Positions 1-13,988 of a stretch of 57,255 nt of DNA are shown one piece after another (the stretch's first letter is position 1; every line of letters begins with the position of its first letter). Below the pieces are notes generated by a model that worked only from the letters and a program-made list of their open reading frames with translations, was not told the DNA's origin and did no database searches. Source of the stretch: a virus (Duplodnaviria > Caudoviricetes); IMG/VR virus record IMGVR_UViG_3300049489_000428, positions 1-57,255 of that record. The stretch is one strand, 5' to 3'. Position numbers and translations under genes: made by a program.

Positions 1-59
1 GCAATTACAGTGGGGTTGCCGCTACCTACCCAAAGCAACACGATTAGAACATAGATCAT
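1..59 (-). CDS. partial small exported/membrane protein (runs off the window)
   Basis: ATG at 59 with GAGGA SD; reads MIYVLIVLLWVGSGNPTVI. Confidence 0.45.
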   Translation of the reverse strand, partial: MIYVLIVLLWVGSGNPTVI

Positions 60-67
60 TTTTATCC

Positions 68-196
68 TCAATAGTAGATTCGAACATTCTTGAATGGTTG
101 CACAAATTTTCCGTTGTGCTCGAATATTTCGCAATTGCGTTTTGCAAACCATTCGATAAAAAACAGCGGCAGAATTTTACACCATGATCGCAACAT
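68..196 (-). CDS. 42-aa hypothetical protein (not in ORF track)
   Basis: Hand translation MLRSWCKILPLFFIEWFAKRNCEIFEHNGKFVQPFKNVRIYY*; tiles tightly between neighbours. Confidence 0.5.
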   Translation of the reverse strand: MLRSWCKILPLFFIEWFAKRNCEIFEHNGKFVQPFKNVRIYY

Positions 197-197
197 A

Positions 198-401
198 TTA
201 AACCCCTAGCGCGACTTGTTGATTAGGCTGCCAGAAAATCACGATATACCGATAACCCTTTTTGATCTGCGGCAGATCACGATTCGACAGATAGGGACCG
301 TTGATAATCTTGAAATCCTTGCCCGCGTTCCAATCATTCAATGCTTGTTGCTGCGAATGATAGTTGCGACCATAAGCGGGACGAATAAAAAGAGTGCTCA
401 T
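198..401 (-). CDS. hypothetical phage protein
   Basis: PAYGR..W..GKDF pattern; AAGG SD; tiled operon. Confidence 0.7.
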   Translation of the reverse strand: MSTLFIRPAYGRNYHSQQQALNDWNAGKDFKIINGPYLSNRDLPQIKKGYRYIVIFWQPNQQVALGV

Positions 402-410
402 GTTAACCTT

Positions 411-566
411 TCAGGAGTTAGCAGTTTCAAAAGCCTGACGAAGCAAATTCAACACACGTTCTTGCCTTCGCAGGTTTTCTAGATCGATTTCCGTGTCGCG
501 GATCATCTCTTGCGTAATTCGCAATTCTTGCTCAATCTGTTCAAGTGGGGGGAGCAAATGTCGCAT
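411..566 (-). CDS. small coiled-coil protein
   Basis: Start trimmed to MRHLL, just after the upstream stop; heptad-like E/Q/L/R-rich sequence. Confidence 0.6.
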   Translation of the reverse strand: MRHLLPPLEQIEQELRITQEMIRDTEIDLENLRRQERVLNLLRQAFETANS

Positions 567-568
567 GA

Positions 569-817
569 TTAACCTTTCAGAAAAATGACGATGAGAAGTG
601 CAAATTGGCCGATGATTCCGATTACTGATCCGACAACGTATGCCCAAAGTTTAACATAAATTTCCTGAATTAGGCAAGCGACCAGACCAATAAGAAGCAG
701 AATAACGGAGGCAGCAGGAGCAGTTTCACCAGTTTGCAATGCTTGAATGATCGCAGGAACCGCGCTCACCTGCAAGCAAACTGTACCCAGGAACCCGGCA
801 AATTTTGCGTGTTTCAT
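569..817 (-). CDS. 3-TM membrane protein, SemiSWEET/PQ-loop-like
   Basis: 82 aa, three hydrophobic helices, G..GT.....SAVPAIIQALQTG resembles PQ-loop helix 1. Confidence 0.55.
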   Translation of the reverse strand: MKHAKFAGFLGTVCLQVSAVPAIIQALQTGETAPAASVILLLIGLVACLIQEIYVKLWAYVVGSVIGIIGQFALLIVIFLKG

Positions 818-969
818 TGTATTCTACCCTTGAGCAGCAGATAAACAATGGTTGCAAGAGAAATTGCAAAGCCTAGCAGGCCAAATTTGGCAAGTGTGAG
901 TAAACACCTATTCCAAAAATCCTCAACCCCCCAAACGGCGTAACCTATTAATTTTGTGTGTTTTGACAT
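814..969 (-). CDS. small membrane protein, probably leaderless
   Basis: MSKHTKLIG...; ATG lies 6 nt downstream of the -10 box; ATGA overlap with next gene. Confidence 0.6.
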   Translation of the reverse strand: MSKHTKLIGYAVWGVEDFWNRCLLTLAKFGLLGFAISLATIVYLLLKGRIQ

Positions 970-975
970 GAGCCT

Positions 976-1004
976 ATTATGTGCGCACCCTAGAATCCTG
1001 TCAA
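976..1004 (-). promoter_or_regulatory. sigma70 promoter
   Basis: TTGACA-17-CATAAT. Confidence 0.75.
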
Positions 1005-1014
1005 TAGACTTTGC

Positions 1015-1028
1015 TTGATCTAGATCAA
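1015..1028. promoter_or_regulatory. FNR/Anr-type box
   Basis: TTGATCTAGATCAA matches TTGAT-N4-ATCAA. Confidence 0.65.
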
Positions 1029-1069
1029 ATATCTTTTTGCAAAAACCGTTGACACCCCAATTTTTGGTG

Positions 1070-1133
1070 GGTACGCTACGCGGCGCGTAAGTCATTGATT
1101 TTAAAGGGTTTTTTCTTTGTGGTCATCTATATG
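1070..1133. repeat. 64-bp intercassette repeat, copy 1 (IHF site 1088-1114)
   Basis: GGTACGCTACGCGGCGCGTAAGTCATTGATTTTAAAGGGTTTTTT..GGTCATCTATATG. Confidence 0.95.
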
Positions 1134-1141
1134 ACTGCGAG

Positions 1142-1153
1142 CCGACGAACGGT
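1142..1153 (-). promoter_or_regulatory. AlgR-like (LytTR) box
   Basis: ACCGTTCGTCGG on the minus strand; recurs six times in the region. Confidence 0.5.
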
Positions 1154-1168
1154 AGTTGACAAATACAA

Positions 1169-1196
1169 GAGCCCGCGGTAGCTACTCCGCGGGCTC
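1169..1196 (-). terminator. intrinsic terminator
   Basis: GAGCCCGCGG/CCGCGGGCTC stem, U-rich tail on the minus strand. Confidence 0.75.
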
Positions 1197-1211
1197 AGGG
1201 GTCACTAACGA

Positions 1212-1274
1212 TTACCATTCGGGCCGTTCAGGTCTTAGGCCATTCCACCTCAGTTTAGCTGCGAGGTTCAGCAT
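1212..1274 (-). CDS. possible 20-aa peptide MLNLAAKLRWNGLRPERPEW
   Basis: Fills the gap between the upstream stop and the terminator; weak SD. Confidence 0.3.
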   Translation of the reverse strand: MLNLAAKLRWNGLRPERPEW

Positions 1275-1281
1275 CGCGATT

Positions 1282-1566
1282 CTACATAAACCCGTAACGC
1301 ACGATGTAAGCGAAAATCACAACCAGAATGCACCGCATGAAACCTGTAACAAGCGAGAATGTATAATCTTGATCCGCTTTAGTCGCTTTGAATGTGAGAA
1401 CGGCAACAAGCGTTGACCCTACGTAGGCTTGCAACATCGTGACTCTAGGAACGCCATAAAGGTCTGGCATAATCAGATTCCACGAGTGAGCCGCCGCCCA
1501 GGCCCAAAAGAAAACCAGAATGACGGTAAAAACGATTCCAAGAACAATCTTAATGGTCTTTTCCAT
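1282..1566 (-). CDS. 3-TM membrane protein
   Basis: Three hydrophobic segments; tiled in operon. Confidence 0.7.
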   Translation of the reverse strand: MEKTIKIVLGIVFTVILVFFWAWAAAHSWNLIMPDLYGVPRVTMLQAYVGSTLVAVLTFKATKADQDYTFSLVTGFMRCILVVIFAYIVRYGFM

Positions 1567-1568
1567 GA

Positions 1569-1694
1569 TTACCAGACCTTGCTAATGAAGTGCCAAGCGA
1601 CGTAGACAAGGCCACCCAGAATTGCAAGTTTGACAACGATAGCGACAACGATGATGAGTTCGACGACGGTAAAGCCCGATTGAAAACGCTTCAT
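1569..1694 (-). CDS. 41-aa type IV prepilin-like mini protein (not in ORF track)
   Basis: MKRFQSG|FTVVELIIVVAIVVKLAILGGLVYVAWHFISKVW*; class III signal G|FTxxE; AGGGGA SD; coupled to upstream stop. Confidence 0.8.
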   Translation of the reverse strand: MKRFQSGFTVVELIIVVAIVVKLAILGGLVYVAWHFISKVW

Positions 1695-1695
1695 T

Positions 1696-1881
1696 TTACT
1701 TTCCCCTGTTAGTGGAACGACGAGCCTTGATGTCGCGGTTCGCTTGCGCGCGAGCCGCAGCGTTGGATGCTTGTTGCCGAAGCGTACCGTTCGCCCGCGC
1801 TTTCGCGGTCTTACCGGAACCGGACAGGGGTTCCAAACCCTGAGCGATACGCCATGCGTTGATCTGTTCTTGCTTGGTCAT
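1696..1881 (-). CDS. small basic protein
   Basis: Start trimmed to MTKQEQ with AAGGA SD; R/K/A-rich. Confidence 0.7.
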   Translation of the reverse strand: MTKQEQINAWRIAQGLEPLSGSGKTAKARANGTLRQQASNAAARAQANRDIKARRSTNRGK

Positions 1882-2062
1882 TTCGGTTTCCTTTAGGTGG
1901 AGTGTTGTAAAGCCTAGGCTATCTTCGCAGCTCAATCGTCTGGTCTAGATCCGAGGATCGAAGGGCGGGAGAGTGGAAGTTAGCCTAGGTTACTCAATCG
2001 GCCATCGCGGTTTCCCATGTTCGCCTAAGCGGCTTTTGTCGGGGGAATGTGCTTAACCGATA
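1882..2062 (-). ncRNA. candidate structured 5' leader RNA
   Basis: About 180 nt between promoter and first ATG, with nested inverted repeats. Confidence 0.35.
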
Positions 2063-2068
2063 AGTTGA

Positions 2069-2110
2069 ATTATACGCGCGCCCACAAAATCGTCAATGAC
2101 CGTTCGTCGG
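2069..2110 (-). promoter_or_regulatory. sigma70 promoter with adjacent AlgR-like box
   Basis: CCGACGAACGGT-CA-TTGACG-16-TATAAT. Confidence 0.7.
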
Positions 2111-2154
2111 CTGACACCTAGCCGACAGACGGTAGTTGTTTTTTTGGCCAGCCC

Positions 2155-2218
2155 GGTACGCTCCGCGGCGCGTAAGTCCTTGATTTTAAAGGGTTTTTTC
2201 TGTCAAGTCATCTATATG
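2155..2218. repeat. 64-bp repeat, copy 2
   Basis: Aligns to copy 1 without gaps. Confidence 0.95.
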
Positions 2219-2264
2219 AATTTATTTGACAGTAAATGCGTCTCATTCTCATTTACAGGTAAAG

Positions 2265-2288
2265 CTATGGCCCCTTGCGGGGCCATAG
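2265..2288 (-). terminator. intrinsic terminator after A2
   Basis: CTATGGCCCC/GGGGCCATAG stem. Confidence 0.7.
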
Positions 2289-2305
2289 TCCTAAGTTATT
2301 ACAGG

Positions 2306-2701
2306 TTACACGGGGATCATGCCGTCCGTGTCGACCGTTTCCGGCTCCACCGGCTCACCGACCGGCTCAGCTTCGAACGCGAGAGCCGCAAGAATCAGCT
2401 TAAGCGCATTCTTGGGAGCCGCTTCGAGGCCGTCGAGCTTGTCGGAAGTGACGCCGATTTCATCGGCAATCTTTTGCACAAGTGCATTCTTGTGCACGAC
2501 CGGCGAACCATCCTTCGCCTTACGCTCGGCCTTCTTATAGACGCCTTCGCGCACGAGCTTGGCCACGACCGACTTAGTGGTCTTGCCGAACTTCGCCGCC
2601 ATCGCTTCCACGGTGGCCTTTTCGGGAGCCGCAGTGTAAGCGGCGACGAGTGCGGAAGTCTGTTCCGCGGTATAATTCACAACCTTAGCTTTTTCAGCCA
2701 T
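2306..2701 (-). CDS. A2: T5 A2-like pre-early DNA-binding protein
   Basis: NYT.E.T...Y, SVVAKL..EGVY.K, K..LV..IA, L..LE.A motifs and length match the T5 A2 family as recalled. Confidence 0.8.
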   Translation of the reverse strand: MAEKAKVVNYTAEQTSALVAAYTAAPEKATVEAMAAKFGKTTKSVVAKLVREGVYKKAERKAKDGSPVVHKNALVQKIADEIGVTSDKLDGLEAAPKNALKLILAALAFEAEPVGEPVEPETVDTDGMIPV

Positions 2702-2804
2702 TTTGTTTCCCTTTACAGGTAATTAGACGCTAGGGGAACAGTCGCATCGCGCTAGGCATCCCTGCCTCCAGACCCCATCGAATGTCATCCATCCGATAAT
2801 TTGA

Positions 2805-2856
2805 ATTATACGCTGTTCCGCCAGTCTGTCAACACACAAACATTGATTTAGATCAA
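2805..2856 (-). promoter_or_regulatory. sigma70 promoter plus FNR-type box (2843-2856)
   Basis: TTGACA-16-TATAAT; TTGATTTAGATCAA. Confidence 0.7.
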
Positions 2857-2897
2857 AAAAGATTTCGGCCAAACTGTTGCTATTCCATTTTCAAACG

Positions 2898-2961
2898 GGT
2901 ACGCTACGCGGCGCGTAAGTCATTGATTTTAAAGGGTTTTTTCTCGGAGGTCATCTATATG
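2898..2961. repeat. 64-bp repeat, copy 3
   Basis: Gap-free alignment to copy 1. Confidence 0.95.
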
Positions 2962-2966
2962 AGTGG

Positions 2967-2983
2967 AATGAGAATCATTCTCA
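2967..2983. promoter_or_regulatory. Fur-type box
   Basis: AATGAGAATCATTCTCA, 7-1-7 dyad. Confidence 0.6.
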
Positions 2984-2992
2984 CCTATAAGC

Positions 2993-3021
2993 AAAAATTA
3001 TCGCGGCTCGCGCCGCGATAA
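2993..3021 (-). terminator. intrinsic terminator
   Basis: TTATCGCGGC/GCCGCGATAA stem with T-run on the minus strand. Confidence 0.75.
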
Positions 3022-3022
3022 C

Positions 3023-3499
3023 TTAGGCCAACCGCGCATTTGCCTTGTGCGCGTTAATGCAAGTGATTCCCATTTGCCTCATGGTTCGCAACACGGGGGC
3101 AGCGTCGTCGAACATAATGAAATGCGCTTTCACAAACTGTTTTAGGTTTCGCAACGGAGCTAGCCATTTCCTTTTATATTCGCCGTCGCCGGATTTGTAA
3201 TGCTTCACGCCGCGGCATTGGTCGCGCGACATTATCTTAGCTGCGGTCAGACCATGATCGCGCAAGAAATCATAATCACATTTCTTCATATCGCGCGCGG
3301 TCAGAATCCAAACCTTTTCACCGCGAGCGATCAGATCGCGCATAACATCGGCGAGAGGTAGCAGAGTGTCGAGTGCTACATTCTCCGGCGTATGGCGTTC
3401 AATGTATGCGGCCAGGTTTAGCGTGCCGTCTGGATTGTTCGGCGTGCGATGTTTCGAGTTAATGACAGTCTCATCGAGATCAAAAATAAAAACGCGCAT
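3023..3499 (-). CDS. HAD-superfamily phosphatase
   Basis: FDLDET motif I, LTAR motif II, K, MFDD motif IV; start MRVFIF with GGAGG SD. Confidence 0.85.
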   Translation of the reverse strand: MRVFIFDLDETVINSKHRTPNNPDGTLNLAAYIERHTPENVALDTLLPLADVMRDLIARGEKVWILTARDMKKCDYDFLRDHGLTAAKIMSRDQCRGVKHYKSGDGEYKRKWLAPLRNLKQFVKAHFIMFDDAAPVLRTMRQMGITCINAHKANARLA

Positions 3500-4176
3500 T
3501 ATTTCCTCCGTTGAACAAGTTGCCACGGCATAGCATGGATTTTATTAGTCAATCGTTTTTGCTTGCGACGAATCACGCGAGCAAGAATCGCGCATTCGAT
3601 TTCGCAATCCTCAATTGCCGTATGCGATTCTGCGAACGTCGGATTTTGCGTCAGATAAGCATAAACAGATTCCGCGCTAGTGCGAACATTGCCGGCGGGT
3701 GAGACAAATCCGTTAGCTTCGCACCATGCGCGATATTTGTTAGTATTCACCAGATCAACGCAAGCCGATAGCCACAAATCCACAAATGCGATTTTGTGTT
3801 GCAAAAATTTATCGGTCATTCCGCAATAGTGCATTGTCTCCGTTAGTGCGTTGCGATCAAATGCGATGTTGTACGCTGCGACAGTGCGAACATTGTGTGA
3901 GTCGATCAGTGCATTAAAGTCGCGGCGAATTTCCGAGAATGATTGCAGTTTAATGCTACCATCGGCAAGCGAGGGAATGTAATGCGTGAAAGTCTTTTTC
4001 GAGTAGTATGCGCCAAGCATCAAATCGGGATTAGTGATAACTTCGCGCACGGCAAAAGACCTGCGGTCGATTTCATTTCCCTTACGGTCGCAAATGATGA
4101 CGCCGAAATCATAAACGAGTTTAGGCGAAATGCCGATTGTCTCAGTGTCAAAAACTGCAAAATTCTGTTGCCTCAT
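3499..4176 (-). CDS. DEDDh 3'-5' exonuclease
   Basis: FDTET, AYNIAFD, HTAIED motifs. Confidence 0.9.
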   Translation of the reverse strand: MRQQNFAVFDTETIGISPKLVYDFGVIICDRKGNEIDRRSFAVREVITNPDLMLGAYYSKKTFTHYIPSLADGSIKLQSFSEIRRDFNALIDSHNVRTVAAYNIAFDRNALTETMHYCGMTDKFLQHKIAFVDLWLSACVDLVNTNKYRAWCEANGFVSPAGNVRTSAESVYAYLTQNPTFAESHTAIEDCEIECAILARVIRRKQKRLTNKIHAMPWQLVQRRK

Positions 4177-4526
4177 TTTACCAATGCTCCCGAATAGGCG
4201 TAGCCGAAAATTCTAATATGGTGGCGTTGAAAAAATCGCCCGTGCTGTTCGCGTTGTGTGCGTTTCGATTTTTGAATCGCTTGCAATTGGTGGATCATTT
4301 CATGCAAGATTAATTCGCGCAAATCAGAATCGGGACAAGCTAGGTTAATGGTTATGCGATGTTTTCCATCCTTGCAAATGTCCCAATAGCCGGCGAAATC
4401 GGAATCGGGCATCGTGGTAAAATAGAACCTCGGTTTCGGCAAACGCGATTCAAAGAATCGGATGTTAGCCAATTCCCAGATACCCTGAATGTAGAGCCGC
4501 ATGGCCCTTGTGTTGTGCGTTCCCAT
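4173..4526 (-). CDS. SprT-like zinc metalloprotease
   Basis: LHEMIH ... HGRFF; N.RFF...LP pattern. Confidence 0.85.
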   Translation of the reverse strand: MGTHNTRAMRLYIQGIWELANIRFFESRLPKPRFYFTTMPDSDFAGYWDICKDGKHRITINLACPDSDLRELILHEMIHQLQAIQKSKRTQREQHGRFFQRHHIRIFGYAYSGALVK

Positions 4527-4533
4527 AAGTTGA

Positions 4534-4575
4534 ATTATACGCGCCCCAGTTAGCTTGTGAAGTACCGTTCGTCAG
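4534..4575 (-). promoter_or_regulatory. sigma70 promoter with adjacent AlgR-like box
   Basis: CTGACGAACGGT-AC-TTCACA-16-TATAAT. Confidence 0.65.
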
Positions 4576-4697
4576 TTCGTTAAGTATATGATTTCATTAC
4601 ATATTCACCCAGTAGACCTAGCTCACACACAAAAGACCTTTTAGAATCATAGAGTTAGCGAGCCGACGAACGGTAGTTGCACCCGCCATTTTGGGCG

Positions 4698-4761
4698 GGT
4701 ACGCTACGCGGCGCCTAACCCCTTGATTTATAAGGAGTTTTTCCTCACGGTCATCTATATG
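4698..4761. repeat. 64-bp repeat, copy 4
   Basis: Gap-free alignment; IHF core AATCAAGGGGTTA on the minus strand. Confidence 0.9.
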
Positions 4762-4828
4762 TGTTTGCATACGTTAACGTATACGTAGATTGCAATCAAC
4801 GTATACGTTGCGATGCGAACGATTATCA

Positions 4829-5050
4829 TTACATTAACCATTGTGTGATACCGTATATATTTGCGGTTGCGAAAACGCTATTAAGCAAAAGAAGCGGAGT
4901 GTTCTTAATCCGCCAAGAATGGATAACGTAAGCGGCGGCACCAATTAAGAAGGGAATATAACCGAACCCGGACACGCCAGTATGCGAGGCCACCATAAAA
5001 GCGCCAAGCATTCCGAAGCAAGCGCCTATCCATTCTAGTGTGCTCCCCAT
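4829..5050 (-). CDS. small 3-TM membrane protein
   Basis: Start MGSTLEWIG coupled by TAATG; hydrophobic. Confidence 0.7.
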   Translation of the reverse strand: MGSTLEWIGACFGMLGAFMVASHTGVSGFGYIPFLIGAAAYVIHSWRIKNTPLLLLNSVFATANIYGITQWLM

Positions 5051-5250
5051 TATGCTACCTTCCGCATTTCGGCGGCAATCTTCAGCAGGCATTCGTTTAC
5101 AGTCTTGGCACCGTGCCGTGCGAGAATCAATCCCTTAATGCGGGAGATACGGCTGCGAGTATTGAAATCGGTAGGATTAACCAAAGTTGCAATGTTCCGC
5201 GTAATCATGCCGAGGGTCTTTGCATCCATCAGAAGTTGGAATTTGTCCAT
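5050..5250 (-). CDS. hypothetical protein
   Basis: MDKFQLL start follows the upstream stop. Confidence 0.6.
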   Translation of the reverse strand: MDKFQLLMDAKTLGMITRNIATLVNPTDFNTRSRISRIKGLILARHGAKTVNECLLKIAAEMRKVA

Positions 5251-5252
5251 GT

Positions 5253-5429
5253 TTACCATCCCATGCGGAAGTTAATCAGTTCGACGGTATATTCTACCGA
5301 TTCATTGGCATTGAAGCAAGCGCCGAGAGTCTTACGAACAAGCGAATTTCCAAACAGGTCGGGATTGAATTCGCCCATCGTGAAAACGTCATTTACGAAC
5401 AGGTCGAACAGCGGATTGGTATTGAGCAT
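5253..5429 (-). CDS. 58-aa hypothetical protein (not in ORF track)
   Basis: MLNTNPLFDLFVNDVFTMGEFNPDLFGNSLVRKTLGACFNANESVEYTVELINFRMGW*; first gene after the promoter. Confidence 0.6.
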   Translation of the reverse strand: MLNTNPLFDLFVNDVFTMGEFNPDLFGNSLVRKTLGACFNANESVEYTVELINFRMGW

Positions 5430-5454
5430 TTGTGTTCTCGCTTGGTATGATTGA

Positions 5455-5517
5455 ATTATGATCGCGTTGTGCTAGTGTGTCAAGCGTTTCGCGTGACATT
5501 TATTTGATCTAGATCAA
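5455..5517 (-). promoter_or_regulatory. sigma70 promoter plus FNR-type box (5504-5517)
   Basis: TTGACA-17-CATAAT; TTGATCTAGATCAA. Confidence 0.7.
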
Positions 5518-5558
5518 AAAAGATTTTGTCCAAGCTATTGCATTACGCGCTGCGCGCG

Positions 5559-5622
5559 GGTACCCTGCGGGGCGCGTAAGCCCTTGATTCCCAAGGGATT
5601 TTCTTACGCGGTCATCTATATG
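5559..5622. repeat. 64-bp repeat, copy 5
   Basis: Most diverged copy; same length; IHF core and GGTCATCTATATG retained. Confidence 0.9.
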
Positions 5623-5624
5623 AG

Positions 5625-5858
5625 TTAAAAGCTATCGTCACCGTAGTAACCATAATCTTCGTCTGTCCCCCATCCGGCCGAGCGCAGGACGTCTGCATCA
5701 GCCTCGGCGTCAGAGTTAAATTGATCCTGCTCATCATCCCCATCATAGAGGTCGAGGTCTACACCACCACATTCCGGGCATTCATCCGATACATTGTGCA
5801 GATCAGTAACGTCGCGCTGGAATACTTCACCACATTCGAGGCATATCAAGGTCGCCAT
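5625..5858 (-). CDS. zinc-ribbon protein with very acidic C-terminus
   Basis: CLEC...CPEC; D/E-rich tail; AGGAG SD. Confidence 0.75.
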   Translation of the reverse strand: MATLICLECGEVFQRDVTDLHNVSDECPECGGVDLDLYDGDDEQDQFNSDAEADADVLRSAGWGTDEDYGYYGDDSF

Positions 5859-5885
5859 TTGTTTTCTCCTGTTGTGATAGGTGTA

Positions 5886-5953
5886 AGTATATATGCTATG
5901 AGTTATAGGTCAACTACCGTTCGTCGGTTAGTTAATGATAATCATTATCATTA
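5886..5953 (-). promoter_or_regulatory. promoter, AlgR-like box and perfect Fur-type box
   Basis: TTGACC-16-TATACT; ACCGTTCGTCGG at 5916-5927; TAATGATAATCATTATCATTA at 5933-5953. Confidence 0.7.
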
Positions 5954-6031
5954 GGGGAGGGCGGTTAGTTGACCTGGTGGTATGGCATAGCTACAGGACC
6001 AACTTTCGCGAAAAATTTATAAAAATTTCTG

Positions 6032-6136
6032 ACCCTAAATTGCAAAGGGCCGCATGGGCCGCATGGGCCGCATGGGCCGCATGGGCCGCATGGATTTATT
6101 ACCCTAAATTGCAGAGGGCCGCATGGATTTATTACC
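6032..6136. repeat. (GGGCCGCAT)x5 tandem array nested in a ~35-bp duplication
   Basis: 9-mer array at 6047-6091; ACCCTAAATTGCA.AGGGCCGCAT..GGATTTATTACC occurs twice. Confidence 0.9.
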
Positions 6137-6180
6137 ACCCACACTTATTTCATATAATTCAACCAAGCATAAAAATATAC

Positions 6181-6209
6181 TTGATTTCGTTAATCTTATG
6201 ACGTATAAT
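6181..6209 (+). promoter_or_regulatory. late promoter
   Basis: TTGATT-17-TATAAT. Confidence 0.7.
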
Positions 6210-6215
6210 AAAAGA

Positions 6216-6680
6216 ATGGGAACTAATATTACACCAATCACACCAGAGTATATTCCAATCTCTCCAGAATCATTGGAAATAGCCAATACATATCTTCAAT
6301 GTCAAGATGTGTCAGAAACAGCTAAACTTCTAGGATTACCTCTAGATCAAGTAGCTGCATATCTGGCAAAGCCTGACGTCAAAGAATATGTCACCGCAGT
6401 GTATTTAGATTCTGGATATAGAAATAGATTCAAACTAGGGAAAATCCTAGATGAAGTAATAGATAAAAAACTAATAGAAATGCAAGAAGCGGATATCGGT
6501 TCATCCAAAGATATTCTAGATATTTTAGCGATGGTTCATAAGATGCGAATGGATGAACTCGCAGCTATAACTGCGCTAGAAAAAGCTAGAAGTGCTGGAC
6601 CGAAGAAACAGACTAATATTCAAATAAATAATCCAGCTGGATCTATTTTTGAAAAGTTGATGGATAATGATGAATTGTAA
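6216..6680 (+). CDS. terS: terminase small subunit
   Basis: T5-like SPE.L.IAN.YL, D.GY.N, SSKDI.D.L...HKM; start trimmed to MGTN. Confidence 0.85.
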   Translation: MGTNITPITPEYIPISPESLEIANTYLQCQDVSETAKLLGLPLDQVAAYLAKPDVKEYVTAVYLDSGYRNRFKLGKILDEVIDKKLIEMQEADIGSSKDILDILAMVHKMRMDELAAITALEKARSAGPKKQTNIQINNPAGSIFEKLMDNDEL

Positions 6681-7909
6681 TGCCCCAAAATATATTTAAA
6701 GATCCCACAACAGGGAATGAGATCAAAGTACCAAAAGTAACAAAAAAACTAATTAAAGCAAATCAGAAGTTTGATACTTTATACAATTTAGGAACAATGG
6801 AATTAAATGCTGGTAGGCATAGTACAGCATTCGACTGTTTTAAAGCAGCACTAGAGCTTGGTGTCTCAAAGGAATGCCTGCTAAATATGTCCACCTGTTA
6901 TAAAGTTCTAGAGAACGAAGGTAAAGCTAAAGAGATTCTAGCTAGCATAATTAAAAACTATCCAGAATTTCCACTAGCGTATAACAATTACGGACTTATT
7001 AGATATGATGATGGTGAATTCGATGAAGCTATCGGGCACTATAATAAAGCTATCTCCTTATGGCCGGAATATGCTGACGCTCACTGGAATCACGCCTTAG
7101 CGTTACTTATTAAACGTTTTGATACTGGAGTACCAAATCCTTTAGCATATCAAGAGTTTGAATGGAGATTTAAAAAATCAAACGCTGTTGCGTTAGCTGA
7201 TGTAACTTCTCCGCGCTGGAATGGTGAGTCGCTTCATGGTAAAAAGCTGCTATTTATGTGTGAGCAAGGATTTGGTGATATGTTCATGTTTATGAGATAT
7301 CTCGAATTGTTACCTATGGATTCCGTATATGTGCACTTTCCTAAAGAGGTTAAAGATTTTCTAGGAGCGTATCAGTATGTGGAGTTTAGTAATATTCCGC
7401 ATGACTATCATATTCCAATTATGTCTTTGCCTAATGTTATGGGCGAGTATTTTCCTTCAGAGCCTTACCTCGATTTTTCTTCGAGTGCATGGAACTTCGG
7501 CGGTGGTAAAAACATTGGTATAGTATGGAAAGGTAATCGCGCTCACGCAAATGATAGAAATCGCTCTATGCATTTTAGAGATTTCTTCCCACTATTTGGT
7601 TTAGGAAAGGTTTGGTCTTTGCAGTATGGAGTTCCTGTTCAGCGACATGCAAAGGATATTCATGAATTGGAAATCCGTAGTTTTATTGATACTGCCAACT
7701 ATATTGCTGGGTTAGATCTAGTGGTTACTGTAGATACTTCTGTAGCTCACTTAGCTGGAGCAATGGGTAAGCCTGTGTTAGTGGTAATGCCAACTCGTGG
7801 GTTGGATTGGAGATGGGGTTCTACAGGTGATAAAACGCCTTGGTATCCTACGATGAGACTTTGTAGGGATAGAGGTCAGATGATTAAGATGGCGTCGGAG
7901 ATGTTATGA
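6680..7909 (+). CDS. TPR-domain GT9-family glycosyltransferase
   Basis: TPRs (AYNNYG, AHWNHA); EQGFGD, IGIVWKG, DLVVTVDTSVAHLAGAMG, WRW...TPWYP. Confidence 0.9.
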   Translation: MPQNIFKDPTTGNEIKVPKVTKKLIKANQKFDTLYNLGTMELNAGRHSTAFDCFKAALELGVSKECLLNMSTCYKVLENEGKAKEILASIIKNYPEFPLAYNNYGLIRYDDGEFDEAIGHYNKAISLWPEYADAHWNHALALLIKRFDTGVPNPLAYQEFEWRFKKSNAVALADVTSPRWNGESLHGKKLLFMCEQGFGDMFMFMRYLELLPMDSVYVHFPKEVKDFLGAYQYVEFSNIPHDYHIPIMSLPNVMGEYFPSEPYLDFSSSAWNFGGGKNIGIVWKGNRAHANDRNRSMHFRDFFPLFGLGKVWSLQYGVPVQRHAKDIHELEIRSFIDTANYIAGLDLVVTVDTSVAHLAGAMGKPVLVVMPTRGLDWRWGSTGDKTPWYPTMRLCRDRGQMIKMASEML

Positions 7910-8457
7910 GTTACGAAGCTTCGAAAGCAATGGCTCGCCGGGGCTCCGAGTTTCGGAAATTCTTTAAAGGTAGCGGAATTGACGTAGGTTGTGGTCCAGA
8001 TTCGGTAGCGCGCTGGAAGAAAAAATTCCCTATACGAAACGTACGAGAATGGGATTTAGCTGATGGTGATGGAGAATTGTTAGCGTCGGTTCCAGATTGC
8101 TCAGTTAATTGGGTTCACTCCTCCCATTCTCTAGAACATATGAGGTCTTGGCAGCGTGCTTTAGAGAACTGGACAAGAGTATGTATCAGAGGTGGCTATG
8201 TCATATGCAGTGTGCCTTCGTGGGAGATGTATGAACATCGCACTTGGCCTTCTCGCTTTAATAGCGACCATAAGCACGCATTTTCACTGGTGGAAAGCGG
8301 CGGACCCGTTGTACTTCTTAGTGAGAAAGTGCTAAATGAGTTTGGATCTGTGATTTTGTTAAGAGAAATTACTGACGGATATGATCCATCTGATTATAGT
8401 GATCAAACTCAAGGACCTGCAGAATGCTGCATAGAATTTGTATTGAGGACTAGATGA
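7906..8457 (+). CDS. class I SAM-dependent methyltransferase
   Basis: GIDVGCG and SSHSLEH motifs. Confidence 0.85.
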   Translation: MSYEASKAMARRGSEFRKFFKGSGIDVGCGPDSVARWKKKFPIRNVREWDLADGDGELLASVPDCSVNWVHSSHSLEHMRSWQRALENWTRVCIRGGYVICSVPSWEMYEHRTWPSRFNSDHKHAFSLVESGGPVVLLSEKVLNEFGSVILLREITDGYDPSDYSDQTQGPAECCIEFVLRTR

Positions 8458-10965: not shown

Positions 10966-12103
10966 GGAAGCTGGTACATCAATTACCAATAACAATAATA
11001 CTTTGTATTATTTAAAAGCTTACCAAGAATTAGATATTGTTAGACGCGGTGTAGACATGATTGTAAATGCTACTGCGTCTTTCGATTATGACGTACAAGA
11101 GCAGTTAGCTGGAGTAACTCCAGTTGTTGGTGGAATGAGAGTTAAGAAGTTAAATGTACTTCTAAACTACCAACCAAACCCGTTTCAAGATATTAGTACT
11201 TTTAGAAGATTGATTGTAATGGATCTTATTCTAGAAGGTAATGCATTCATTTACTTTGATGGCGTTGATATTTACCATTTGCCGGCCTGTAATATAGAGA
11301 TTCTTACAGACCCTAAAACGCTGGTTTCGGGATATCGTTACAGTTCATCAAAGACTGTATTTGAACCAAAAGAAATTATACATATTCAGGATAACGCAGG
11401 TTCTACAATTTATCGTGGAGAACCTAGACTTAAAGCTGCTGAGACGAGCATTCGTACAATTATTACAATGCTCCAATTTCAGGAGAATTTCTTTAAGAAT
11501 GGTGCAGTTCCTGGACTAATTATCACCTCACCAAATCCTTTGGGAGATAAAATTAAAGAACGTATGCTGGCCGTGTGGTCACAACGTTACAACCCTAAGA
11601 ATGGTGGAAAACGTCCGCTCATACTTGATGGTGGAGCAGATGTCAAAAATTTAGGGCAAGGTAATTTTCAAGAACTTGACTTTGAAAACTCTATTGGCTC
11701 TAAAGAGCGTTCAATTCTAAAAGCTTTAGGCGTACCTCCAATTCTATTAGACGGAGGAAATAATGCAAATATTGCACCAAATCTTAAATTATTCTATTTA
11801 GAAACCATACTGCCTATTGCTAAAGCTATTTCCTCCGCTTTCGAACGTTTCTTTGGATATAACCTAGACCCTGAAACTGGAAGAATTTCGGCACTTCAAC
11901 CTCAGATGGGCGAAGCAGCCGCTTACTACTCTACGTTAGTAAATGGTGGTATTATTTCACCAAATGAAGCTCGTGAAGAACTAAGATACGAAACAAGACC
12001 AGAATTAGAAGATGTTAGAGTACCGCAAAATATTGCTGGTTCAGCAGTAAATCCATCACAAGGTGGGAAGCCACCAGCACCAACAAAGGATATAAATGAG
12101 TAA
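10895..12103 (+). CDS. portal protein (pb7-like)
   Basis: EKLNP, PNPFQ, GNAFIY, FFKNGAVPG, ISPNEAR. Confidence 0.95.
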   Translation: MSLWNDTKMWLSEKLNPVQPIISEEAGTSITNNNNTLYYLKAYQELDIVRRGVDMIVNATASFDYDVQEQLAGVTPVVGGMRVKKLNVLLNYQPNPFQDISTFRRLIVMDLILEGNAFIYFDGVDIYHLPACNIEILTDPKTLVSGYRYSSSKTVFEPKEIIHIQDNAGSTIYRGEPRLKAAETSIRTIITMLQFQENFFKNGAVPGLIITSPNPLGDKIKERMLAVWSQRYNPKNGGKRPLILDGGADVKNLGQGNFQELDFENSIGSKERSILKALGVPPILLDGGNNANIAPNLKLFYLETILPIAKAISSAFERFFGYNLDPETGRISALQPQMGEAAAYYSTLVNGGIISPNEAREELRYETRPELEDVRVPQNIAGSAVNPSQGGKPPAPTKDINE

Positions 12104-13988
12104 GAAAGTATTTACACTTTCTGCTCCACTACTTAAAGTCGAAAAGGCCTCACAGTCTGACGACTCAACGGATAAACCGTCTATATTTATTGAAGGGTAT
12201 GCAAATACTATTAATAAAGATAGAGTTGGTGATGTAATTGTCGCGGAGGCCTGGACAAAGGGTGCTCTTACCAATTATTTAAAGAATCCAATTATCTTAG
12301 GGTTCCACGATCACTCAAATCCAATTGGAGTAGCAGAGCAGGTATCCGTTGATCCAAACGGATTAAAAGTTAGAGCAAGAATAAGTCCCGCAGCTGAGGA
12401 TGAGTACAATTTAATCGCCGATGGAGTTTTAAAGGCGTTTTCAGTCGGCTTCACTATTAAAGATGCCGAATATGATTCAGAAACAGACATTTTTTTAATT
12501 AAGGATGTAGAGCTATACGAGATTAGTGTAGTTTCGGTTCCTGCAAATCAAGACTGTATTTTCGAAATGGCTAAGTCATTTGAAAATTCGGCAGAATATC
12601 AAGATTTTAAGAAATCTTTTAGTAAAAAGTCCGTGGAGCCATCCACACAACAAGTTTCAAAGGAGAAAAAGTTAATGGATCCTAAAGATCTAGAACAGCT
12701 AATGAAGCAAACCGCAGAGAGCACAGCAAAAGCTGTTGCAGACGCAATTGCTCAAAAAGCTGCTGAAGAAAAAGCCGCTGCTGATGCGAAGGCTGCAGAA
12801 GAAGCGCAAAAACAAGAATTGATTAAGCTTGGTCAAAGTGGAGCTGAAAAGATTGTAGCAGAAGCTGAGAAGCGCATTGCTGAAGCCAATGGCGAAGCAG
12901 TTGGTAAGCTTCTAGGTGATCTTAAGAGCGAAATGCAAGCTCAGATTGATGAAGTCAAGAAGGCTGCTCAATCTAAGATGAATTTCAATGACAAGGGTGG
13001 AAACACAAATGAGCCCAGCATGGCTGAAAAGACCAGTGCTGTTCTTATGGCGAAAGCTCTTGGCGTTCCTATTACCGAAACTAAGTTCGGTAAGGAATTG
13101 ATTGAAAAGGCTGGACCTCACGTTGCTTCAGCTTATTGGGAAGATCAAGTATCTACCAACATGCAAGAAGAAATTCGCAGGCTTCTAGTTGTTGCTCCCC
13201 TGTTTAACACGATGCAGATGCCTTCAAGCATTCTTCGTCTACCAGTAAATCCTGAAGCCGGTTACGGTACATGGGTTGCTGCTTCTTCATTCGGTACTAC
13301 ATCATCTTCTGGTGCTGCTGGTACGCATGTATTGAAGGAATTAACACTTACCGCTTACAAACTAGCGACTAAGGAATTCCTGACATACGAAGAAGAAGAC
13401 GATACCTTCCTGGCGATTATGCCTATCGTACGTAACGCACTAGTGCGTCGTATGGCGAAGTCAACTGACCTAGCACTTCTACGTGGTGCTGGTAGCGGCG
13501 GCGACCCACTTAAGGGTCTCGGCGCTTGGGCAGCTGCCTCTGATGGTGTAACCGTTACTAACACAGCTAAGGCAACCGTTGCTAACCTAGCATCAGTTCG
13601 TCGTAAGCTTAATGTTTGGGGTATGAATCCTTCAGACCTAGTATTCATCGTTTCAACTGATGTTTACTTTGACCTTCTTGAAGATGCGGATTTCCGTACA
13701 TGGGATAAGGTAGGCGACAAAGCCACTATTCTTAACGGAGCAATCGGTCAAGTAAGTGGAACTAACGTTATTGTATCTGGCGAGTTTGCAGCCCGCGCTG
13801 CAGCCGCGGTTGGAGCAATCTGCGTTAATGCACGTAACTTCATTTTTGGACGTTATAAGAATCTACGTCTAGAAAGCGATACATTCGTCGAATCACAGAA
13901 TAAGATTCTGGTTGCGACTGAGCGTATGGCGTTCCAACAACTAAGCACTGTTGACGGTAATGCTGTTAGCAAGCTTGTTTGGAGCTAA
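12096..13988 (+). CDS. prohead protease fused in frame to HK97-fold major capsid protein
   Basis: IEGYAN, HDH..PIG, FSVGF, EISVVSVPAN, then coiled-coil delta domain and capsid body; internal SD and ATG at 12675. Confidence 0.92.
   Translation: MSKKVFTLSAPLLKVEKASQSDDSTDKPSIFIEGYANTINKDRVGDVIVAEAWTKGALTNYLKNPIILGFHDHSNPIGVAEQVSVDPNGLKVRARISPAAEDEYNLIADGVLKAFSVGFTIKDAEYDSETDIFLIKDVELYEISVVSVPANQDCIFEMAKSFENSAEYQDFKKSFSKKSVEPSTQQVSKEKKLMDPKDLEQLMKQTAESTAKAVADAIAQKAAEEKAAADAKAAEEAQKQELIKLGQSGAEKIVAEAEKRIAEANGEAVGKLLGDLKSEMQAQIDEVKKAAQSKMNFNDKGGNTNEPSMAEKTSAVLMAKALGVPITETKFGKELIEKAGPHVASAYWEDQVSTNMQEEIRRLLVVAPLFNTMQMPSSILRLPVNPEAGYGTWVAASSFGTTSSSGAAGTHVLKELTLTAYKLATKEFLTYEEEDDTFLAIMPIVRNALVRRMAKSTDLALLRGAGSGGDPLKGLGAWAAASDGVTVTNTAKATVANLASVRRKLNVWGMNPSDLVFIVSTDVYFDLLEDADFRTWDKVGDKATILNGAIGQVSGTNVIVSGEFAARAAAAVGAICVNARNFIFGRYKNLRLESDTFVESQNKILVATERMAFQQLSTVDGNAVSKLVWS

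Follow-up and report, generated by a model that had tools for sequence, protein, structure and literature searches.

A mainly phage-borne family of one-helix, putative membrane micro-proteins with a common aromatic C-terminus and, in some members, a prepilin signal

Phage pilin mimics and a 41-residue phage protein

By one account, type IV filament systems occur almost everywhere among prokaryotes (PMC10191384), and some phages encode small proteins that resemble their subunits or obstruct their assembly. Mimics of FimU that prophages encode become incorporated in the pilus and block phages (Sztanko et al. 2026, PMC12952977), and six virulent Pseudomonas phages carry 60-residue N-terminal fragments of PilA that might incorporate into or inhibit pili (PMC12952977). 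PfsE of Pf4, a protein of only 30 residues, blocks type IV pili by binding the platform protein PilC through its YAWGW cluster and thereby mediates superinfection exclusion (Schmidt et al. 2022, PMC8764522). A cellular parallel is the split pilin of Geobacter, in which the stick and the head of a type IV pilin are made as two proteins (PMC10191384). Here we analyse a 41-residue protein encoded on the minus strand, at positions 1569-1694, of a 57,255-nucleotide stretch of tailed-phage DNA (IMG/VR record IMGVR_UViG_3300049489_000428; this whole stretch is called the window below). Profile and pattern searches place the protein in a large, undescribed and mainly phage-borne family of one-helix, putative membrane micro-proteins, 31–60 residues long, which we call the HFISKFW family after its C-terminal motif. 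To our knowledge, the phage proteins that silence type IV pili (Tip, Aqs1, PfsE, PlzR and P-FimU) come almost only from Pseudomonas phages, and each of them was discovered on its own. The gene is laid out as follows.

1569-1694, minus strand: gene of the 41-residue micro-protein, stop codon included; product MKRFQSGFTVVELIIVVAIVVKLAILGGLVYVAWHFISKVW
Layout of the product: seven-residue leader MKRFQSG, then the class III signal and helix from FTVVE onwards, then the C-terminal family motif
1572-1604, minus strand: codons of the last 11 residues, YVAWHFISKVW, the family-defining and most conserved motif

A class III signal is defined as a hydrophilic leader that ends in Gly or Ala, followed by 20–25 mainly hydrophobic residues, often with Glu at +5 (PMC10191384). 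Like type IV pilins (PF07963, TIGR02532, IPR012902), the micro-protein has a leader ending in Gly, Phe at +1, Thr at +2, Glu at +5 and a run of about 20–25 hydrophobic residues that corresponds to α1N. Unlike them, it has neither α1C nor a globular head, many of its relatives carry no signal at all (we call these plain members), and a search across proteins of all lengths found the YVAWHFISKFW motif in no pilin at E ≤ 1e-3. Short pilin-like PHROG families, namely phrog_13280 (67 positions) and phrog_11263 (72 positions), match the N-terminus of the window protein. With the truncated PilA proteins it shares being phage-encoded, pilin-like and headless (PMC12952977), whereas, as judged from their description, those fragments are longer, at about 60 residues, and the HFISKFW family has a C-terminal motif of its own. 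Only P-FimU among these pilin mimics has an experimental test in the account given in PMC12952977.

PfsE resembles the family in being a tiny phage protein with a conserved aromatic cluster and offers the best functional analogue of the plain members. The two differ, again as far as the description of PfsE goes, in that its motif is a different one and internal, and the account in PMC8764522 mentions no prepilin signal; moreover, PfsE comes from a chronic inovirus and the HFISKFW family from tailed phages. The Geobacter split pilin, as described, offers a natural ‘stick’ without a globular head, but it is cellular, structural and paired with a separate head, whereas no such partner was identified for the micro-protein.

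The family, its C-terminal motif and its signal

Family members follow one plan: a short, mostly basic N-terminus, then a stretch of about 21 residues without charge, and at the end the invariant C-terminal motif. The core common to signal-bearing and plain members reads L-A-x-x-G-G-x-x-Y-V-A-W-H-F-I-S-K-F-W-COOH, and the window protein carries the pattern by which we recognize members, Y-V-A-x-H-F-I-[ST]-K-x-W at the very C-terminus. A HMMER search with the window protein as sole query, run against 1.84 billion representatives without a length limit (E ≤ 1e-3) and biased towards the query's N-terminus, returned 77 matches, 69 of them 36–50 residues long; 74 end in HFxx[KRM]xW and 64 carry G[FYWML]TxxE. 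One match, of 651 residues, is spurious, and in a few longer ones the unit stands at the C-terminus after an internal Met, apparently behind a mis-called start. Alignment A2 comprises 64 rows chosen for carrying the signal, that is, the window protein (P0001), P0002 and 62 of the 77 matches; the 15 left out are the spurious match, the long forms and the signal-less ones. Across these rows Thr+2, Phe36 and Trp41 are invariant, and Gly-1, Glu+5, His35 and Lys39 are kept in at least 90%; the 64 signal-bearing clusters are mostly less than 60% identical to the query. Where intact, the prepilin signal is well conserved by this measure, and the alignment points to purifying selection on a peptidase/assembly signal inside the signal-bearing subgroup.

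A sample blind to the N-terminus was drawn by scanning IMG/VR with a DNA pattern for HFI-x-KFW followed by a stop codon. Four of the 35 loci it yielded were set aside, having merely 13–17 open codons; the 31 family-like loci that remain span 24–62% guanine-plus-cytosine (GC) content and lie on contigs of up to 429 kb. A mixed profile (A5), built from the window protein and 36 IMG/VR members, found at least 573 clusters at E ≤ 0.1 among 1925 candidates. Among the 120 matches listed, 119 end in HFxx[KR]xW, 42 have a canonical signal (G/[FY]TxxE, the slash marking the cleavage site) and 50 fit a looser pattern. The profile also matches the window protein over positions 1–40 at E 1.1e-16, which, with the protein itself in the profile, is mainly a positive control.

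The two kinds of member are not cleanly separated. Their N-terminal flanks are alike in being net positive (mean +0.88 in signal-bearing and +0.83 in plain members), so that a topology with the N-terminus inside and the C-terminus outside fits both. When members are ranked by similarity over the last 22 residues, the nearest neighbours of signal-bearing members are signal-bearing in 50% of cases and those of plain members in 14% (averages). Because plain and signal-bearing types are intermixed in this way, the conserved core is the C-terminal motif, and the pilin signal is an interchangeable or repeatedly lost N-terminal module set upon it.

The family is new, although phage-encoded pilin-like proteins as such were already known. 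For the C-terminal motif we found no entry in Pfam, PHROG, NCBIfam, PADLOC or PDB, and the PHROG matches (27437, 13280, 10597, 11263, 3433 ‘pilin’ and 11596) are confined to the pilin-like N-terminus. A profile search of PDB gave nothing below E 0.18, its top rows being pilin N-termini; ESM Atlas gave no usable match for P0001 and, for the plain member P0158, scores of at most 0.80 to unnamed clusters, which serve as leads only. Our literature search found no paper that contains ‘WHFISK’ or describes the family. DUF7248 (PF23906), which is precomputed on one member, was considered as a Pfam home and rejected, since it matches one of 37 members (E 0.0086); it also gives a weak match to the 94-residue protein encoded next to the micro-protein (E 0.017). 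A sorting signal of the GlyGly-CTERM type, considered for the G-G pair, was discarded as well: NCBIfam gave zero match, and the tail is without the basic cluster that marks such signals. Source databases label members ‘hypothetical’, ‘prepilin-type...’, ‘PilE’, ‘PulG’ or, wrongly, ‘FliL’, and a 41-residue homologue 83% identical to the window protein appears in one source as ‘Tfp pilus assembly protein PilE’. At present the family is overlooked by gene callers and family databases, or its members go under the wrong names ‘PilE’ or ‘PulG’.

Members occur mostly in uncultured phages, jumbo phages included. Jumbo-size contigs that carry them measure 353 kb (L032), 429 kb (L034), 197 kb (L017) and 172 kb (L045), one of them at 24% GC, and given such carriers the host range of the family must be very wide. 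By contrast, the family is nearly absent from cellular genomes: an exact-pattern scan of 185,579 species genomes left two confirmed loci, both on contigs of metagenome-assembled genomes (MAGs). A profile search of five cultured T5-like genomes (T5, VCPH, DU_PP_V, KKP_3711 and pVp-1) found the family in none, and tblastn of the micro-protein against cultured phages gave zero match even at E 10, where the low-complexity filter may hide some. The single locus from a metagenome scan (L002) was set aside; its 149-residue protein has only a GGLVYVAW stretch inside a helix, probably by chance. Good Shine-Dalgarno sites precede many members. The 140 open reading frames (ORFs) that neighbour members at 36 phage loci include AAA_24, ERF, YqaJ, endonuclease VII, helicases, homing endonucleases and terminases. 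At one locus (L003), a 69-residue ORF at 5486-5692 with a lipoprotein-like signal ending at Cys lies about 300 nucleotides upstream of the family member; the known exclusion proteins of T5-like phages are lipoproteins.

The prepilin signal and possible targets of the micro-protein

The first-pass annotation of this DNA had read the protein as a mini type IV pilin with a prepilin-peptidase signal, no globular head and a Lys in its helix, and these structural points hold. The class III signal is genuine by both curated models, although narrowly: PF07963 (Pfam N_methyl) gives 21.5 bits (E 1.6e-4; cut-off 21.2) and TIGR02532 (NCBIfam) gives 17.9 bits (cut-off 16.3). A six-frame search of the whole 57-kb record found a single prepilin site (E 2.2e-5), at 21.1 bits just below the cut-off. 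The leader, MKRFQSG, contains two basic residues and ends in Gly (position -1), and it is followed by the hydrophobic stretch FTVVELIIVVAIVVKLAILGGLVYVAW, with Glu at +5 and one Lys at +15; this Lys is common only to a small sub-lineage (P0002, P0044, P0055 and P0075). From the 64-row alignment, AlphaFold2 predicts one helix over residues 10-40 with a pLDDT of 91, and the predicted mature product is a headless peptide of 34 residues. From hydrophobicity and charge, we infer a location in the inner membrane.

We tentatively propose that the micro-protein, as a headless α1N stick processed by the prepilin peptidase, targets type IV filament machinery of the inner membrane. On insertion, the N-terminus would stay in the cytoplasm and the C-terminus would come to lie outside, and the host prepilin peptidase would cut off MKRFQSG and might methylate Phe+1. 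What remains would be a 34-residue headless α1N ‘stick’ with Glu+5 in the inner leaflet and the aromatic tail at the periplasmic face. Within the inner-membrane pilin pool this stick could engage the pilins or pseudopilins, the platform protein or the peptidase, and pilus or pseudopilus function would be disturbed early in infection. The active part would be the conserved C-terminal motif, which the pilin-type anchor would deliver to the filament machinery. Three considerations favour this proposal. First, dozens of diverged clusters have kept Gly-1, Thr+2 and Glu+5. Second, PfsE provides a precedent. Third, filament machinery so nearly universal would fit a family spread over phages of such widely different GC content. 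Pilus jamming is one plausible function of the micro-protein.

Several results nevertheless weigh against a role at the filament machinery. The margins over the model cut-offs are merely 0.3 and 1.6 bits. The canonical signal occurs in only six of the 31 blind-sampled loci, one more having a degenerate form, and in none of 12 loci (ten viral, two MAG) found with the pattern VAWHFIS(K), of which about five are degenerate; 78 of the 120 listed profile matches are non-canonical. Decayed signals exist, with Asn or Ala at -1 or with Gly, Ala or Asp at +5, and take forms such as G/FTIVG, G/ITLVA and A/YTLVD among the VAWHFIS(K) loci. By its last 22 residues, the window protein's nearest kin are P0003 (plain), P0002 (signal-bearing) and then plain members. 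Pfam detects no pilus-related family in the 140 neighbouring ORFs. In four of five phage records with a signal-bearing member (three of these four being complete genomes, one of the four 353 kb long and one classed as a provirus), the micro-protein is the sole N_methyl match, and the fifth, a 22%-complete fragment, has zero N_methyl match. Finally, we found no link from plain members to pili. The earlier view of a headless pilin mimic therefore survives in part: the signal is canonical and the protein headless, but being a headless pilin cannot be the whole mechanism, because the invariant part is the C-terminal motif, so few blind-sampled members are canonical and P0003 is signal-less.

The micro-protein may instead be a membrane-anchored effector whose target lies outside type IV filaments, the main alternative, which we rate no less likely than the proposal above. 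From the outer face of the inner membrane, its C-terminal motif would bind some other conserved inner-membrane protein or a lipid, perhaps with the effect of barring DNA entry of superinfecting phages or of taking over a host membrane function, and the class III signal would be just one of several anchors of N-in/C-out type, possibly acquired from a host pilin gene. An invariant C-terminus behind a variable N-terminus is what such an effector would have, on average half of the nearest neighbours of signal-bearing members are plain, and the decayed signals reflect relaxed selection in many lineages; the early region of the window is also rich in small hydrophobic ORFs, and no pilus family appears among the neighbouring genes. 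On the other hand, Gly-1, Thr+2 and Glu+5 are kept across 64 clusters although a mere anchor has no need of Glu+5, and no result indicates any alternative target.

Alternatively, the micro-protein might be a true mini-pilin, polymerized as a minor subunit into host pili or pseudopili; like the prophage FimU mimics, it would then alter the surface or stability of the filament instead of obstructing the membrane-embedded machinery. We consider this improbable. Mature Flp/Tad pilins have only about 40–50 residues, the type IVa signal with its Glu+5 is canonical, and incorporation has been proposed for the 60-residue phage PilA fragments (PMC12952977). The 34 mature residues, however, amount to α1N and little more, and the segment packing into the outer filament layer is absent. 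The 41-residue protein lacks the lollipop architecture of pilins, in which an α1 of about 50 residues carries a globular head; scores from equivalog pilin models stay well under their cut-offs (for example, 18.8 against 158 bits), and the Flp/Tad (type IVc) signature is lacking, with PF16982 Flp1_like reaching 16.6 bits against a cut-off of 33.5. Moreover, signal-less members keep the same C-terminus, yet could not be polymerized.

A peptide that times lysis or forms pores (a holin, an antiholin or a viroporin-like protein) by oligomerizing in the membrane would likewise be small, a single helix, conserved and rich in aromatic residues; the G-G pair could pack helices, and the adjoining 94-residue gene also encodes a membrane protein. 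We nonetheless think such a role improbable too. The 140 neighbouring ORFs at 36 loci contain no lysis-related Pfam family, whether lysozyme, endolysin, holin or spanin, and those with annotation belong to the early or replication type. Within the window, neither operon partner has a lysis-related match; the genes around the operon are of nucleotide-metabolism and nuclease-like kinds, and its sigma-70 promoter is of an early type. A homo-tetramer prediction scored 0.10 against a mark of 0.42, which, obtained without controls, speaks neither for nor against oligomerization.

That the ORF is a chance or untranslated stretch between real genes is hardly credible: it is very short and hydrophobic, its HMM (hidden Markov model) scores barely clear the cut-offs and no RNA run is among those listed, but full-length homologues of the same size exist in hundreds of clusters, with the stop codon right after the invariant Trp and Shine-Dalgarno sites ahead of many of them, and the ORF exactly fills the gap between its neighbours. 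The 41-residue ORF is a real, conserved gene.

A broader reading, in our estimation unlikely, is that phages use the whole HFISKFW family almost universally to inhibit type IV filament machines (pili, type II secretion and competence pseudopili). The invariant aromatic helix end at the C-terminus would bind a component that is conserved in bacteria at large, namely the α1N/Glu5 region of pilins, the platform protein or the prepilin peptidase; signal-bearing members would then be ‘Trojan-horse’ versions that the peptidase processes into the pilin pool. The family is abundant, with hundreds of clusters in very different phages, and its members, at only 31–50 residues, are short enough for synthesis. 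Its design is modular, in that a constant aromatic tail is combined with one of two kinds of anchor, plain or with a canonical prepilin signal. Should the type IV filament machinery prove to be the target, the family could serve as a general peptide probe or inhibitor for pili, type II secretion and competence, and would amount to a natural experiment on the contributions of the class III signal and Glu+5. With a target elsewhere, it would still represent an unannotated and very widespread early phage function.

The operon, its promoter and the phage

The micro-protein gene lies second of three in an operon that has its own promoter and terminator.

1696-1881, minus strand: operon gene 1, encoding a very basic, soluble protein of 61 residues
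1282-1566, minus strand: operon gene 3, encoding a hydrophobic protein of 94 residues that matches phrog_2169 ‘membrane protein’ (E 4.5e-7)
2069-2096, minus strand: operon promoter of the sigma-70 type, TTGACG, a 16-nucleotide spacer and TATAAT, with 11 of 12 consensus positions
1169-1196, minus strand: intrinsic terminator at the operon end, a 10-bp stem with nine G-C pairs and a T-rich tail
2098-2138, no strand assigned: imperfect inverted repeat that abuts the -35 element, its promoter-proximal arm holding CCGTTCGTC

A Shine-Dalgarno site, AGGGGAAAG, lies 5–13 nucleotides before the ATG of the 41-residue ORF on the minus strand. The TAA of the 61-residue ORF stands one nucleotide ahead of that ATG, and the 94-residue ORF starts two nucleotides past the TAA of the micro-protein gene. 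The ribosome-binding site and the tight coupling to both neighbours described in the first-pass annotation are thus borne out, whereas the ORF is not hidden as had been supposed, since the source record already calls it as a protein (P0001). The same annotation had the protein made right after entry; from the coupled operon, the strong promoter and the early-type layout of the region, transcription and translation early in infection are plausible, as a prediction from sequence. The 61-residue protein has zero Pfam, PHROG or PADLOC match, PADLOC has zero match on eight early ORFs of the window, and Rfam shows nothing beyond a chance-level microRNA row in window positions 1-6500. As IMG/VR queries, the 94-residue protein and a 225-residue exonuclease-like protein retrieved no related loci.

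Positions 1304-1979 of the operon recur with zero differences in contigs from a second freshwater study, and the DNA runs that contain the stretch are labelled freshwater sediment or freshwater. Contigs of two runs (X1 and X3) join 1158-1160 to 2896-2898, linking the promoter modules near 1160 and 2898, and so omit 1737 nucleotides, comprising the micro-protein operon and the next gene. The junction has 16 other letters between its sides and flanks of only 22–24 nucleotides, inside repeats; instead of a deletion variant, it may come from a related phage or from an effect of assembly.

The 9-mer CCGTTCGTC, which is the AlgR core consensus as printed in PMC4064291, lies at 2100-2108, three nucleotides upstream of the -35 element, and has five copies in the window against 0.13 expected. 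An AlgR-like box had been noted in this promoter, and the match is exact, but the link to AlgR is unsupported, the box being part of a repeated phage promoter module. At three promoters (near 2050, 4515 and 5870), a repeat family (D3) to which the operon promoter belongs, the -35 directly adjoins a GACGAACGG box; at three others, a TTGATCTAGATCAA palindrome takes that place. The two kinds of abutting sequence point to two classes of regulated early promoter, which may differ in regulator or in timing. Nothing about a freshwater phage of 40% GC calls for AlgR of Pseudomonas. Equally, nothing indicates a Pseudomonas host or a type IV pilus receptor, as GC content is about 40%, the cultured relatives are all distant and the runs are from fresh water.

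The six early promoter modules for minus-strand genes lie at 990-1165, 2050-2225, 2786-2970, 4515-4770, 5440-5630 and 5870-5960. Five of them have a common upstream element of about 65 nucleotides (78–95% identity), which includes a small hairpin with compensatory changes, followed by a T-run on the plus strand.

The source record is linear and about 51% complete (CheckV). Its DNA polymerase is 46% identical to that of Demerecviridae, the best cultured-phage match, its large terminase 50–51% and its major tail protein 37–38% identical to those of cultured phages; judging from these proteins, the phage is an uncultured, distant T5-like siphovirus. Megablast of window positions 1-8000 against cultured phages gave zero match, and no tRNA genes were found. 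GC content is 47% in the first 5 kb against 37–44% in other bins (about 40% overall), so that this early region, with the micro-protein in it, is compositionally unlike the remainder of the phage. The left 6 kb is taken up by small genes on the minus strand, preceded by near-consensus sigma-70 promoters that recur; next to them are a HAD-type phosphatase-like gene, an exonuclease-like ORF and a SprT-like gene. Other small hydrophobic ORFs lie at 198-1095 and 4829-5092, for example, an 82-residue ORF at 569-817 and an 87-residue ORF at 4829-5092, the latter with a sub-threshold NMN_transporter match (E 4.9e-5). On these predictions, several small membrane proteins seem to be among the early products of the phage.

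Two further features lie beyond the early genes. On the plus strand, 12096-13988 encodes a 630-residue protein that matches head-maturation-protease and major-head-protein PHROGs (phrog_80, phrog_617 and phrog_4523) and, from these matches, appears to combine protease and capsid in one fused gene. Where the minus-strand early genes give way to plus-strand genes, 5935-6201 contains short direct repeats (GGGCCGCATGGATTTATTACC twice, plus 33-nucleotide repeats), which yield a spurious ORF with a WAAWAAW repeat; the segment may be a regulatory or origin-like region.

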